A DNA stretch of 20,000 nucleotides from an uncultured virus (IMG/VR IMGVR_UViG_3300043774_001054) (Duplodnaviria > Heunggongvirae > Uroviricota > Caudoviricetes), in the IMG/VR virus record IMGVR_UViG_3300043774_001054, positions 53,458-73,457 of that record. The stretch is one strand, 5' to 3'. The position numbers and the translations under genes are program-made. The notes below the pieces were generated by a model. The model ran no database searches, was not told the DNA's origin, and saw nothing but the letters and a program-made list of their open reading frames with translations. Position 1 is the stretch's first letter. Every line of letters starts with the position of its first letter. This document shows positions 13,707-17,138 of this stretch, one piece after another.

Positions 13707-13747
13707 AAAAAAGGACCCAATGAATTTATTTTTTCATTGGGTCCTTT
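13707..13747 (-). terminator. Intrinsic terminator ending the tRNA-island transcript
   Basis: Stem AAAGGACCCAATGAA/TTCATTGGGTCCTTT running into a T-tract, just after tRNA-Ala. Confidence 0.85.
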
Positions 13748-14832: not shown

Positions 14833-15069
14833 TCACTTTTTCTGCAATTCAATAAGTCTATCTAAAATGTAAAGAGCCATTTGAAAGTTTCCACAGTCAA
14901 TGGCCGCAATTAGTTCTTTTTTCAAATTCCACGCCTTTTCAGCATCGGTCCACGCATCCATGCTATATGCAAGAGAGTTTGGCGTCAATGGAGAGTTTCT
15001 CGCATACGCATTGGCAACCGTCTTCATGGACGGATTCATTGCCATTGGTTGTATCGGTGCTATCTCCAT
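14833..15069 (-). CDS. Hypothetical protein
   Basis: 78 aa; late-promoter-like AATAAATA 5 nt upstream of the ATG. Confidence 0.7.
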   Translation of the reverse strand: MEIAPIQPMAMNPSMKTVANAYARNSPLTPNSLAYSMDAWTDAEKAWNLKKELIAAIDCGNFQMALYILDRLIELQKK

Positions 15070-15101
15070 CTATCTATTTATTATTTTGTAACATTTAGAA
15101 G

Positions 15102-15178
15102 TGGTGCTCATTGTAGGACTCGAACCTACGACCCTCTCGGTGTAAGCGAGATGCTCTAACCAACTGAGCTAAACGAGC
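15102..15178 (-). tRNA. tRNA-Val(TAC)
   Basis: Canonical cloverleaf, CCA. Confidence 0.95.
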
Positions 15179-15182
15179 AAAA

Positions 15183-15260
15183 TGGTTCACTATGGAACTG
15201 GAAGCCGTGTTCCTCCTTTTTGCCGGCATGGCAAACTGCTCTCCGTTGAGCTATTAGTGA
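15183..15260 (-). ncRNA. Atypical tRNA-like RNA (normal D arm, non-canonical anticodon and T loops)
   Basis: TCACTA/TAGTGA-ACCA, TAGCTC..GAGC, TTTGCC/GGCAAA, GGAAC-N10-GTTCC. Confidence 0.7.
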
Positions 15261-15263
15261 AAA

Positions 15264-15634
15264 TGGTGGACCTGAGGGGAGTTGAACCCCTGTGTTCAAT
15301 AATTTTTCCGATAATTTTCTACAAGCTTAGTACTACTTAACTGTCGCCATGATACCGTAATACTGTATCATGATTGTTTTGGTGAGGATACACATCTTGT
15401 ACACCACTTCAAGACGGTCTCGCTTTTTATGACGAGTGTAACACTTAGCGAGAATCTGTGTTATCTACTCGATCACAGTTTTTAGGCTGCGAGTGGCATT
15501 TCTTCGGCGAAACCGAAGAAATTGCTGAGGGCTTTATTAATGCCGTTTAACTTTTTACCAGTTTTTAAAAGGTATCCGGAGAACCTTGCTTGCTTACTAT
15601 AAGTCTATTACTGAGTCGAATCCAGTACAGGCCC
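15264..15634 (-). ncRNA. ssrA: tmRNA
   Basis: 5' GGGCCTGTACTGGATTCGAC; 3' T arm plus CAGGTCCACCA with G3:U; 371 nt; internal frame ending LAA-stop. Confidence 0.96.
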
Positions 15635-15655
15635 ATAAATTTAAAAGAACGAAAT

Positions 15656-15729
15656 TGGATGCTGGGGATGGAATTGAACCATCAGCTCCGCGTTATGAGC
15701 GCGACGAGTTACCGTTACTCTACCCGGCA
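15656..15729 (-). tRNA. tRNA-Met(CAT), atypical
   Basis: Loop CTCATAA; initiator-like A11:U24 but no three consecutive G:C pairs; C4.A69 mismatch; U73. Confidence 0.8.
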
Positions 15730-15735
15730 GGAAAA

Positions 15736-15988
15736 TGAATTTGGGAGGATTAATGATTACCTCCATCGTCCTAGTGTTTTCAGTTATTCAGTCATATGGT
15801 GCCGTCGCACCTTAATAGTCCGCTTGTCATTGTATTTCATGCTTACAAGACTATACCTCTGGTTGCTTAGGTTGGCCGACCCAAGTTTTCAGCGTAGTAC
15901 CTTACCTACTTACACATTGTAGAACTGAGTGATGTTCTTCACACCACCCATGCGTTAGCCCCATTAGAAAGGCTTATTCCGCCACAAA
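15736..15988 (-). ncRNA. Putative large structured ncRNA A (about 250 nt)
   Basis: At least 7 helices, e.g. TGGGTGGTGT/ACATCACTCA, CTTGGGT/ACCTAAG, ATAGTC/GACTAT, GGTGC/GCACC, GGAGG/CCTCC; ends TTCA. Confidence 0.7.
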
Positions 15989-16008
15989 AATTAAAAAAGA
16001 ACAAAAAT

Positions 16009-16295
16009 TAGTGGGACCGTGGATTAATGCCACGCACCGGTCTGTCCCGTAACCTGCTGGTAGAACTTGTATCCAGCCAAGGCATTGGTTTAAAGAGTGA
16101 CAATGCTTCCTCTCCAGGGTGTCGGGCAGTTTAAGTGCACCGACAAAATTTCTCTCATTCCGGCAACGTCAGCATACAGTCCCGACCAGTGCCTATTCCA
16201 CTATTATCGAGATTCTACAACTGTTGCAGACCGTGGTGACAATAGGTTCGTGAAACCAGTTGCAGAATGAGAGTCCAAGGAGATCAAGCCTTGGA
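16009..16295 (-). ncRNA. Putative large structured ncRNA B (about 290 nt) with tRNA-minihelix-like 3' end
   Basis: TCCAAGG/CCTTGGA, CTCTCATTC/GAATGAGAG, TGCAACTG/CAGTTGTA, TGTCGG/CCGACA; GGGAC/GTCCC-ACTA plus 5-bp/7-nt arm. Confidence 0.7.
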
Positions 16296-16362
16296 AAGTT
16301 TTTAGAAAGAACAAAACCGAATTGTAACGAGTGAGCCTCTATTCGTGGCTTTATATAAAAAG

Positions 16363-16536
16363 TCAAGATTTAAAGAATGCCGTTAGTAAAGTTCCGAAAA
16401 AGCAAACAACATTACCAACAAGCAAAGAGATAGAATATTTGTTCCAGCTCCGCATAAAGCCTGGGCGGTCCACGATGACTTTCCAGAAGGTGAATAACCA
16501 ACCAGCGAAGAACAACAAAGTTAATATTAGTTTCAT
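16363..16536 (-). CDS. Small two-TM membrane protein (57 aa)
   Basis: Manual translation MKLILTLLFFAGWLFTFWKVIVDRPGFMRSWNKYSISLLVGNVVCFFGTLLTAFFKS; TTGACT -35-like box upstream; not in the ORF track. Confidence 0.65.
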   Translation of the reverse strand: MKLILTLLFFAGWLFTFWKVIVDRPGFMRSWNKYSISLLVGNVVCFFGTLLTAFFKS

Positions 16537-16580
16537 AAAAGTAATAGTGAAGGGAATTTATAAAGAAAGTCAAGAAAAAA

Positions 16581-16653
16581 TGTCCACGGAGTCGAACCGT
16601 TTTTCACATAATATGATTATGGGCCACCACCTTCTAGCTAGAAAGGCTGGACA
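16581..16653 (-). ncRNA. tRNA-like RNA with canonical T loop but short acceptor and aberrant arms
   Basis: TGTCC/GGACA, ACGG-TTCGACT-CCGT, CATAA-TCATA-TTATG; no CCA. Confidence 0.6.
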
Positions 16654-16657
16654 AAAA

Positions 16658-16759
16658 TGAATCAAGTAGATGTTCGGTGTATTTGTCAATTTCCGCACCG
16701 TAGCCAATCAGCCCTAGACATATTAGGCGATTATTTTCATTAAACGGGTATCTACTTGA
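16658..16759 (-). ncRNA. Putative stem-closed ncRNA ending TTCA
   Basis: 10-bp closing stem TCAAGTAGAT/ATCTACTTGA; internal CGGTG/CACCG and AATC/GATT helices. Confidence 0.6.
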
Positions 16760-16762
16760 AAT

Positions 16763-16833
16763 TGAATCAGTGGTGAAGTTGCAGCAATTTATCTTCACTT
16801 TACATATACCTGCTTGGATAGTATCCTCACTGA
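16763..16833 (-). ncRNA. Mini tRNA-like RNA ending TTCA
   Basis: TCAGTG/CACTGA stacked on GTGAAG/CTTCAC; small GGAT/ATCC hairpin. Confidence 0.6.
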
Positions 16834-16837
16834 AAAT

Positions 16838-16958
16838 TAGATAGAATCGTATAGGCCGTGAAGATTTCAAGAGTCTTTGGGTCTTGCCATCCGTCGCACC
16901 CTGCGAAGTCCAATTAGGCCGAAAGAGCGGCATTTTTGTAACCTCTGATACGATTCTA
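16838..16958 (-). ncRNA. Putative stem-closed ncRNA ending TCTA
   Basis: 11-bp closing stem TAGAATCGTAT/ATACGATTCTA; internal GCCG/CGGC and TCGCA/TGCGA. Confidence 0.6.
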
Positions 16959-16980
16959 AAAGTTTTTAAAGAACAAAAAT

Positions 16981-17050
16981 TGGTGGACTTTATCGTTGCC
17001 CGACGACGGTGGATTTATACCACAGGCTCCGTACTGATTACCGTTTGCCA
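16981..17050 (-). ncRNA. Possible degenerate or permuted tRNA-like element ending ACCA
   Basis: 3' GTCCACCA; internal GTGG-TATAAAT-CCAC hairpin; no clean cloverleaf. Confidence 0.35.
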
Positions 17051-17061
17051 TTTTTTCAAAT

Positions 17062-17138
17062 TGGTGCCTCCTCCGAGATTCGAACTCGGAACCCACTGAT
17101 TAAAAGTCAGCAGCTCTGAACCGTTGAGCTAAGGAGGC
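17062..17138 (-). tRNA. tRNA-Lys(TTT)
   Basis: Canonical cloverleaf, loop CTTTTAA, CCA. Confidence 0.95.

Follow-up and report, generated by a model that had tools for sequence, protein, structure and literature searches.

Phages carry two RNA classes, ROOL and GOLLD, that lie near tRNA genes and form RNA-only multimeric cages. The phage RNA manA (Rfam RF01745) was first proposed as a riboswitch candidate in 5' untranslated regions (UTRs) (Weinberg 2010, PMC2864571), and for 16 years it has been classed as probably a riboswitch located in the 5' UTRs of cyanophages. According to the main text of a July 2026 cryo-EM preprint (10.64898/2026.07.01.735769), which mentions neither tRNAs nor palindromes, five manA RNAs shorter than 200 nt assemble through intermolecular kissing loops into pentamer-based octamers, decamers and a 60-subunit icosahedral-like cage. 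Here we analysed a stretch of 20,000 nucleotides (hereafter the window), which forms the final 20 kb of an uncultured-virus record of 73,457 bases (IMGVR_UViG_3300043774_001054), the completeness of which is estimated at about 45%. Its minus strand encodes, at 15740-15988, an RNA that, judged from its sequence relationships, is very likely an enlarged long form of the manA class. Our preferred reading, to which we give a probability of about 0.7, takes identity and processing jointly: a long-form manA RNA that stands alone and is processed out of a precursor.

The RNA belongs to an array of RNA genes that runs, on the minus strand only, from about 13.7 kb to the end of the window and contains 19 tRNAs (ARAGORN) and one transfer-messenger RNA (tmRNA). 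It is the single copy of a manA-like RNA in the 73-kb record, and in the direction of transcription its next genes are tRNA-Met (15729-15656), after a gap of 10 nt, and the tmRNA. The elements of the locus, in the order of transcription, are:

15991-16010, minus strand: boxA-like spacer rich in U, UUUUUGUUCUUUUUUAAU, immediately 5' of the RNA
15740-15988, minus strand: structured RNA proper, from the 5' to the 3' strand of the closing stem; 249 nt, or about 259 nt with the 3' linker
15985-15988, minus strand: 5' strand of the closing stem, UUUG, pairing with CAAA at 15743-15740 (fold and family covariation)
15952-15985, minus strand: 5' module, a manA signature, with GUG, outer pairs GCG/CGC, internal loop GAAUAA, hairpin AGCCUU-UCUAAU-GGGGCU and UAA
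15926-15950, minus strand: hairpin P3, UGGGUGGUGU-GAAGA-ACAUCACUCA, with a loop of the GAAGA/GAAAA type (covariation)
15912-15925, minus strand: 5' strand of the long-range helix, GUUCUA..GUGU, pairing with ACAC-UAGGAC at 15777-15768 and enclosing the expansion domain
15894-15909, minus strand: small predicted hairpin GUAG-GUAAGGUA-CUAC within the conserved AGUAAGUAAGGUACUA block
15859-15892, minus strand: CUG/CAG stem around the hairpin CUUGGGU-CGGCCA-ACCUAAG, with the loop palindrome GGCC at 15877-15874
15815-15854, minus strand: long irregular hairpin AUAGUCUUGU...ACAAGCGGACUAU
15798-15811, minus strand: short G+C hairpin GGUGC-GACG-GCACC
15778-15797, minus strand: unpaired junction with the second CUGAAUAAC copy and CUGAAAAC
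15744-15764, minus strand: terminal hairpin GGAGG-UAAUCAUUAAU-CCUCC (in DNA, GGAGG-TAATCATTAAT-CCTCC), the manA signature 3' hairpin
15730-15739, minus strand: 10-nt linker UUCAUUUUCC from the closing stem to tRNA-Met, read from the sequence
15656-15729, minus strand: tRNA-Met (CAU) (ARAGORN; Rfam tRNA, 56.9 bits)
15264-15634, minus strand: phage tmRNA, the next gene after tRNA-Met in the array (Rfam tmRNA, 105.6 bits; ARAGORN tag peptide)

At its curated thresholds, Rfam 15 gives no match within 15736-15988. A permissive scan of 15600-17100 with all 4227 families (E <= 10) returned six matches, one of them to manA, which aligns on the minus strand over 15734-16006 and model positions 1-192 (22.2 bits, E 0.0034; E 4e-5 in the 73-kb record). 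The parts that align are the GUG-GC-GGAAUAA-hairpin-UAAC-GC module and UGGAGGUAAUCAUUAAUCCUCC with the closing strand, about 100 nt being inserted between them. In the family, the 5' module consists of the closing stem, GUG, two or three outer pairs, an internal loop CUGAAUAA, a hairpin and UAAGG; in the window it reads UUUG-UG-GCG-GAAUAA-hairpin-UAA-CGC, and 15952-15985 aligns with the manA consensus GUGaCUGAAUAA...UAAgGu, with pairs that change on both sides in our alignments. The 3' hairpin of the family, with its conserved loop GGUAnnCAnUAAUCC and the closing strand directly after it, appears here as GGAGGUAAUCAUUAAUCCUCC and then CAAA; the stem is weak in the window. The terminal hairpin (15764-15744), followed by CAAA-UUCA, aligns with the manA consensus ugGGUAuacAguAAUCCca, and its loop in close relatives is UAAUCAUUA plus two variable bases. 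Departures from the classic form concern, it appears, the centre, where cmscan leaves the helices of the model unaligned around the insertion of about 100 nt and the window has the domain enclosed by the long-range helix, and the position in the genome, since the RNA is followed by tRNA-Met after 10 nt and then by the tmRNA, not by a protein gene whose 5' UTR it would be.

Relatives were sought over viral and metagenome contigs with degenerate patterns of the terminal hairpin and with a pattern running from the GGCC hairpin to CUGAAUAAC. These searches recovered classic cyanophage manA RNAs, sub-threshold forms of about 170-200 nt, and six long-form subfamilies of 267-323 nt, whose scores against the manA model form a gradient, all alignments being full-length:

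L007, classic form: 163.7 bits
L033, L250, L246 and L076, 200-nt group: 82-93 bits, above the cut-off of 55.2
L013 and L131-type, sub-threshold forms of about 170-200 nt: 41-45 bits
Long forms, including the window (22.2): 20-35 bits

The close relatives of the window score 23.7-33.9 bits. For a covariance model (R1), the window and four close relatives were the only input; it places the RNA at 15729-15997. Against R1, the remaining long forms all score 23-54 bits, and the 200-nt RNAs that pass Rfam score 28-41 bits, with E-values of 1e-7 to 4e-12 (L250 41.2, L246 38, L033 33.5). The long form is a branch of the manA family beyond the reach of Rfam's model at its thresholds, and our literature searches found no published description of it. 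When the phage GenBank collection was searched by blastn, a 281-nt stretch had no match and the 7-kb surroundings matched through tRNAs only. Two further searches were set aside. The pattern GGTAATCANTAATCC gave mostly chance matches in coding DNA of viral contigs. A genome-collection scan gave 120 stretches, 80 of which, with flanks, were searched with R1; none had a full-length match (best 15.9 bits) and the stretches were taken as chance matches, so that no bacterial carrier is shown.

The minimum-energy fold of 15740-15988 contains 15 helical segments, amounting to about ten helices, and the architecture consists of a closing stem, some nine inner helices and the conserved terminal hairpin. 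An earlier, sequence-only reading of this DNA had counted at least seven helices, and the motifs, terminal hairpin and long-range GTTCTA/TAGGAC pairing that it named are all in place on the minus strand. The motif CTGAAAAC (CUGAAAAC as RNA) is present twice, at 15892-15885 and within 15783-15776, and CTGAATAAC (CUGAAUAAC as RNA) once, at 15791-15783, all on the minus strand, while the long-range pairing joins GTTCTA (15925-15920) to TAGGAC (15773-15768) and is lengthened by GUGU/ACAC. The minus strand folds at -70.4 kcal/mol (z -2.0; 6 of 200 shuffles equal it) and the plus strand at -57.9 kcal/mol (z -0.5; 51 of 200). Several G-U pairs, likewise noticed earlier, can form on the minus strand only, which is the strand of all 19 tRNAs and the tmRNA.

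Covariation was measured in two alignments, A4 with 12 distinct close relatives and A2 with 33 rows from all subfamilies. In A4, standard pairs occupy 89.8% of pair cells, versus 80.6% in shuffles and 37-46% with slid partners; changes on both sides occur in 26 of 70 pairs, a count reached by none of 500 shuffles, so that the homologue covariation which the sequence-only reading had put forward as a check is indeed present. In A2, 90.3% of cells are paired (versus 64.8% in shuffles) and 56 of the 70 pairs change on both sides. Within A4, both-side changes affect nine of ten pairs in P3 (96.7% of cells paired), four of nine outer pairs in the long irregular hairpin and three of five pairs in the short G+C hairpin (100% of cells paired in each), and all four pairs of the GUGU/ACAC part of the long-range helix. 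The stem at 15859-15892 shows them in seven of seven pairs across the subfamilies of A2, and the terminal hairpin has 100% of cells paired in both alignments. The unpaired parts are also kept: GACUGAAUAAC of the junction at 15778-15797 is retained in all 12 close relatives, and GUGACUGAAUAAC-like copies occur at the equivalent place in other long forms.

The long-range helix and the closing stem were each tested free of any alignment. Registers of the long-range helix differ among relatives, each having its own complementary pair of strands. Over ten distinct strand pairs, cognate combinations reach -12.3 kcal/mol versus -5.8 for non-cognate ones, and none of 20,000 permutations was as good; the values for the window itself are -8.6 (cognate) and -3.6 kcal/mol (non-cognate). 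A wide-window version of the test across subfamilies was passed overall (0 of 265 derangements), with seven of eight non-cognate partners scoring equally for the window alone; the narrower test took its place. The closing stem keeps a constant position, next to GUG with one strand and to the terminal hairpin with the other, while its sequences are quite different between subfamilies; over 43 distinct combinations in the family, cognate strands pair at -8.1 versus -4.6 kcal/mol for non-cognate ones (permutation p about 2e-4). Most helices, the long-range one included, are backed by covariation among the 12 close relatives and five other long-form subfamilies.

A tRNA begins flush behind the RNA in five of the 12 close relatives (the window, L438, L477, L436 and L462) and ends within a few bases in front of it in four (L410, L399, L453 and L456). 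A pistol ribozyme (RF02679, 43.8-52.1 bits, cut-off 34.5) begins no more than 3 bases behind the RNA in L415 (on the same contig as L165) and L456, lies about 155 nt behind it in two of the 12, and is directly behind it in the metagenome-scan copies L251 and L259 too (L251 47.6 bits). The slot that it occupies in relatives is that of tRNA-Met in the window. The pistol ribozymes recorded (36.9-52.1 bits) are:

L165:1536-1603
L251:1038-1103
L456:290-349, minus strand
L408:131-190, minus strand
L469:706-765

Pistol cleaves near its own 3' end and would stay attached to the upstream RNA. A tmRNA was found within the examined flank at seven loci. Among classic manA loci, 15 of 93 (not de-duplicated) have a tRNA, and in 14 of these 15 it is a tRNA-Asn or tRNA-Gly located 18-19 nt past the terminal hairpin (L004, L007, L018, L031, L044, L060, L071, L087, L097-L099, L107, L113 and L117); in the window, tRNA-Met begins 18 nt past TAATCC, the same spacing as in those 14.

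Two observations concern the shorter relatives. Examined by eye, Rfam-passing 200-nt RNAs (L265, L269, L271, L272/L274/L275, L244, L246 and L250) look like self-contained units made of a TTGACA/TATAAT-like promoter, a small hairpin, a boxA-like TTGTTCTTTAA, the manA RNA, and a G+C-rich terminator-like hairpin with a U run; a further promoter-like site follows, and no protein gene is seen inside. The freshwater-2 RNA (RF02980, 47-73.5 bits, cut-off 49.9) sits a few hundred bases behind a sub-threshold manA-like group (manA 41-43 bits), at L131:1685-1759, L168:1635-1719 and L189:2147-2220.

The stretch was found in 14 lake-water DNA runs, possibly including its own source, and, in part, in six metatranscriptome runs. 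Four RNA runs from four studies were compared over 15000-16700. Each has a contig on the tmRNA and, separately, one short contig inside the RNA, of 175-227 nt and 97-100% identity, all within 15761-15992:

Run X15: contig of 227 nt, window span 15776-15992
Run X16: contig of 209 nt, window span 15761-15969
Run X17: contig of 175 nt, window span 15807-15972
Run X18: contig of 208 nt, window span 15774-15975

No contig of these four runs bridges into tRNA-Met or into 16026-16139, and neither part has any cover in these runs; as contigs cannot show ends, this was not used as evidence. Together with the covariation, these contigs back the earlier proposal of a large, ornate non-coding RNA on the minus strand.

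Because the relatives lie flush with tRNAs, tmRNA or pistol ribozymes, and because contigs of the sequence occur in RNA libraries, we favour a stand-alone RNA cut from a tRNA-tmRNA precursor over a switch in a 5' UTR. The RNA would be part of a long transcript that comprises tRNAs and tmRNA, has boxA-like spacers and lacks protein genes, and judging from position a cut by RNase P at the 5' end of tRNA-Met, 10 nt behind, would free its 3' side; in relatives, release might proceed via the 3' end of the tRNA in front or via the pistol ribozyme behind. The riboswitch originally proposed for manA in 5' UTRs (Weinberg 2010, PMC2864571) would instead be a cis-acting leader, whose fold binds a metabolite and controls transcription into tRNA-Met, tmRNA and tRNA-Val. 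The RNA does lie upstream of other genes on the same strand, and its conserved unpaired CUGAAUAAC junctions could make a ligand pocket, but the 10-nt gap to tRNA-Met contains neither a terminator-like site nor an alternative pairing, and the downstream partner is interchangeable in close relatives: it may be a tRNA or a pistol ribozyme, or the next tRNA may follow after about 58 nt. Moreover, some 200-nt relatives appear, by eye, to be free-standing between a promoter-like site and a terminator-like hairpin, and the tRNA flush in front in four relatives suits excision more than a leader, so that we consider a switch unlikely at this locus. Still less probable is that the fold serves processive anti-termination, modifying RNA polymerase together with the boxA-like spacer (compare rrn leaders, lambda nut and HK022 put) so that the transcript escapes Rho. 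The sequence-only reading had seen such a spacer, and the boxA-like TGTTCTTT is found at 16003-15996; it occurs four times in the window, always on the minus strand and between genes of the RNA array (1.4 expected; 10 of 200 shuffles give at least four). BoxA-like GTTCTTTAA / GATCTTTGACAA elements precede several relatives, and the strict pattern precedes six of 34 non-classic RNAs, versus 3.4% of background 100-nt windows. The spacer is, however, absent where a tRNA abuts the 5' side of the RNA and was not seen ahead of two of the six long-form subfamilies, and the RNA therefore appears independent of it; boxA elements could by themselves account for anti-termination, and a covarying fold of 260 nt and ten helices far exceeds what put and nut presumably need.

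That the RNA might be a shortened ROOL or GOLLD member was suggested by the sequence-only reading, from the resemblance of its 3' part to ROOL-type RNAs. An ornate, multi-helical RNA in a phage, next to tRNAs, recalls both classes, but neither is among the six matches at E <= 10 in 15600-17100, the window RNA does not reach half their length, and it is with manA that its signature motifs align. The ROOL model (RF03087, 574 positions) likewise finds nothing at E <= 10 across the 73-kb record; since the control genomes were equally silent, that search alone proves little. We give this membership practically no credence, the resemblance being to manA. Just as hard to sustain is the view that the region is not an RNA gene, being instead protein-coding or a spacer structured by chance. 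A frame of 110 aa with a TTG start does occupy 15590-15922 of the plus strand, and the fold of the single sequence reaches a z of only -2.0; this frame, however, is antisense to tRNA-Met as well as to the tmRNA, every reading frame is broken by indels of 1 or 2 nt between close relatives, which excludes a coding frame, and the covariation is strong.

Several points weigh against the RNA being a processed, long-form manA RNA. Its manA score of 22.2 bits is far under the gathering score of 55.2, so membership is not reached by score, and the manA model also matches weakly (E <= 10, none above the cut-off) in four of 14 control genomes. R1 has no match at E <= 1 in six of six classic cyanophage manA loci; the link to manA therefore runs through the intermediates, and the homology traced through them appears, from sequence, to be real. 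As to the fold, the z-score of the single sequence is modest, so that the case depends on relatives; the closing stem of the window has only four A-U-rich pairs (UUUG/CAAA, -0.4 kcal/mol); the GUUCUA/UAGGAC register is present in only 53% of A4 cells; and the GUAG/CUAC hairpin, whose sequence is conserved, has no both-side changes and 81% of its cells paired in A4, which makes it the weakest helix. Both alignments were fitted to a covariance model, which biases them towards the structure of that model; the slid-partner controls and the alignment-free tests address this. The RNA evidence consists of contigs, without strand, ends or level, and carry-over of DNA into the libraries is possible. 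Lastly, the processing and oligomerisation proposed for the window RNA are argued from position and analogy, and the preprint that supplies the analogy (10.64898/2026.07.01.735769) concerns, in its main text, RNAs shorter than 200 nt studied in vitro at high RNA concentration and 10 mM Mg, and still terms manA putatively cis-regulatory.

By analogy with the short manA RNAs, the free RNA might self-assemble into a closed homo-oligomer by loop-loop contacts; for the long form we hold this to be possible, if somewhat short of probable. The multimerisation raised by the sequence-only reading would then be apt, by way of the manA family instead of ROOL. Two hairpins are of interest here. In the first, with the loop CGGCCA, GGCC is invariant among the 12 distinct close relatives. 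At the equivalent hairpin, three other subfamilies carry either GGCC or GUAC, with L252 as the exception, and in two subfamilies no equivalent was found; judged by its sequence, the GGCC/GUAC loop is a candidate for a two-fold contact. The second is the hairpin that comes last ahead of the 3' CUGAAUAAC-type motif, and its loop is palindromic in eight of eight long forms outside the subfamily of the window:

L247: UAAUUA
L255: AAUU
L252: CAUG
L258: CAAUUG
L132: UUUAAA
L126: CAUG
L228: UAGCUA
L061: UUAA

In the subfamily of the window, this loop is GACG (as in the window itself) or GGCG, which is not of the palindromic type. Over all 82 predicted hairpin loops, palindromes of at least 4 nt number 26 versus 22.4 expected from composition-kept shuffles, and those of at least 6 nt number 12 versus 5.4, eight of the 12 being the shared terminal loop; because this excess is modest, the palindrome argument rests on the two specific hairpins. 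Nothing conserved was seen in complementarity between different loops, and by eye the P2 loop has no complementarity to the variable end of the terminal loop. A more ambitious extension, by analogy again and in our view rather doubtful, is that the long-form RNA builds, as its subunit, a shell made of RNA only: it would be released from the tRNA-tmRNA precursor through RNase P, the 3' end of a tRNA or pistol, and its extra hairpins would give symmetric contacts absent from short manA, the palindromic loops kissing with two-fold symmetry and linking oligomers into a larger cage. If this were true, the constant company of tRNAs and tmRNA would hint at a translation-linked role in infection, such as holding or shielding those RNAs.

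Elsewhere in the array, a second candidate structured RNA lies directly upstream, at 16012-16300 on the minus strand, flanked by boxA-like TGTTCTTT at 16313-16306 and 16003-15996. It has a minimum free energy of -95.8 kcal/mol (z -2.8; none of 200 shuffles as good) and its closing helix, CUCUCAUUCUGCAAC/GUUGCCGGAAUGAGAG, is long. The candidate RNA is conserved, with changes within that helix, in L251 and L259, where it comes directly after tRNA-Lys. Rfam gave nothing for it at E <= 10, and one RNA-library contig covers 16145-16248. Two small frames, one of 99 aa at 16634-16933 and one of 57 aa at 16363-16536 (both minus strand), occur in the otherwise protein-free stretch from tRNA-Lys to the RNA modules, and the 99-aa frame has no PHROG family. 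The minus strand at 16570-16640 has what looks like the 3' half of a tRNA, including a T-arm-like ACGGUUCGACUCCGU; it is called by neither ARAGORN nor Rfam and may be a decayed tRNA or a tRNA-like element. At the other end of the array, right after tRNA-Ala, a strong terminator-like hairpin (15 pairs, then UUUUGUUU; 13710-13747, minus strand) probably marks the end of the RNA-gene transcription unit. A PHROGs search of 15 neighbouring frames gave only ligase, phosphoesterase, glycosyltransferase-like and methyltransferase-like matches, and no family for the two frames nearest the RNA.

What the main text of the cage preprint (10.64898/2026.07.01.735769) describes in vitro comes without a biological setting, and the window and its relatives offer one for the enlarged branch of the family: freshwater phages in which the RNA is wedged among tRNAs, tmRNA and self-cleaving ribozymes, and whose sequence is present in the RNA libraries of four studies. 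This setting and the library contigs are why a free, processed RNA is favoured over a leader. The GGCC and GUAC palindromes provide concrete loops that bear on whether, and how, larger manA-type RNAs assemble.

Compared with known systems, the window RNA is closest to manA. It shares the closing stem directly before GUG, the module GUG-RC-NGAAYAA-hairpin-UAA, the 3' hairpin loop UA..CA.UAAU with the closing strand immediately after it, the phage origin and, with some classic members, a tRNA 18-19 nt behind. It differs in its length (250-260 nt versus about 190 in the classic form), in its centre, apparently replaced by a domain enclosed by the long-range helix with four extra hairpins, the second CUGAAUAAC copy and the GGCC loop, and in its setting, since it comes from freshwater phages and adjoins a tmRNA, with no protein gene behind it. 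ROOL and GOLLD resemble it in being phage-borne, with tRNA genes nearby and many helices, and given their cages the window RNA may work alike; in contrast, there is no match in sequence or structure, the window RNA is less than half as long, and its conserved motifs are others. As in tRNA- and pistol-punctuated arrays (RF02679), the RNA is flush with tRNA ends or with pistol in close relatives, although processing is here suggested by position. The UGUUCUUU-type spacers between RNA genes, on the transcribed strand, are like those of rrn-type boxA leaders, whereas the window copy UGUUCUUUUUUAA deviates from the boxA consensus, several relatives lack the spacer, and binding of NusB/NusE is putative. 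Finally, as in palindromic kissing loops such as the dimerisation initiation site of HIV-1, a hairpin loop of the RNA has a self-complementary tetramer, and the switch between GGCC and GUAC from one lineage to another keeps that self-complementarity; the palindrome here has 4 nt in a loop of 4-6 nt, would form a putative dimer, and is missing from L252.

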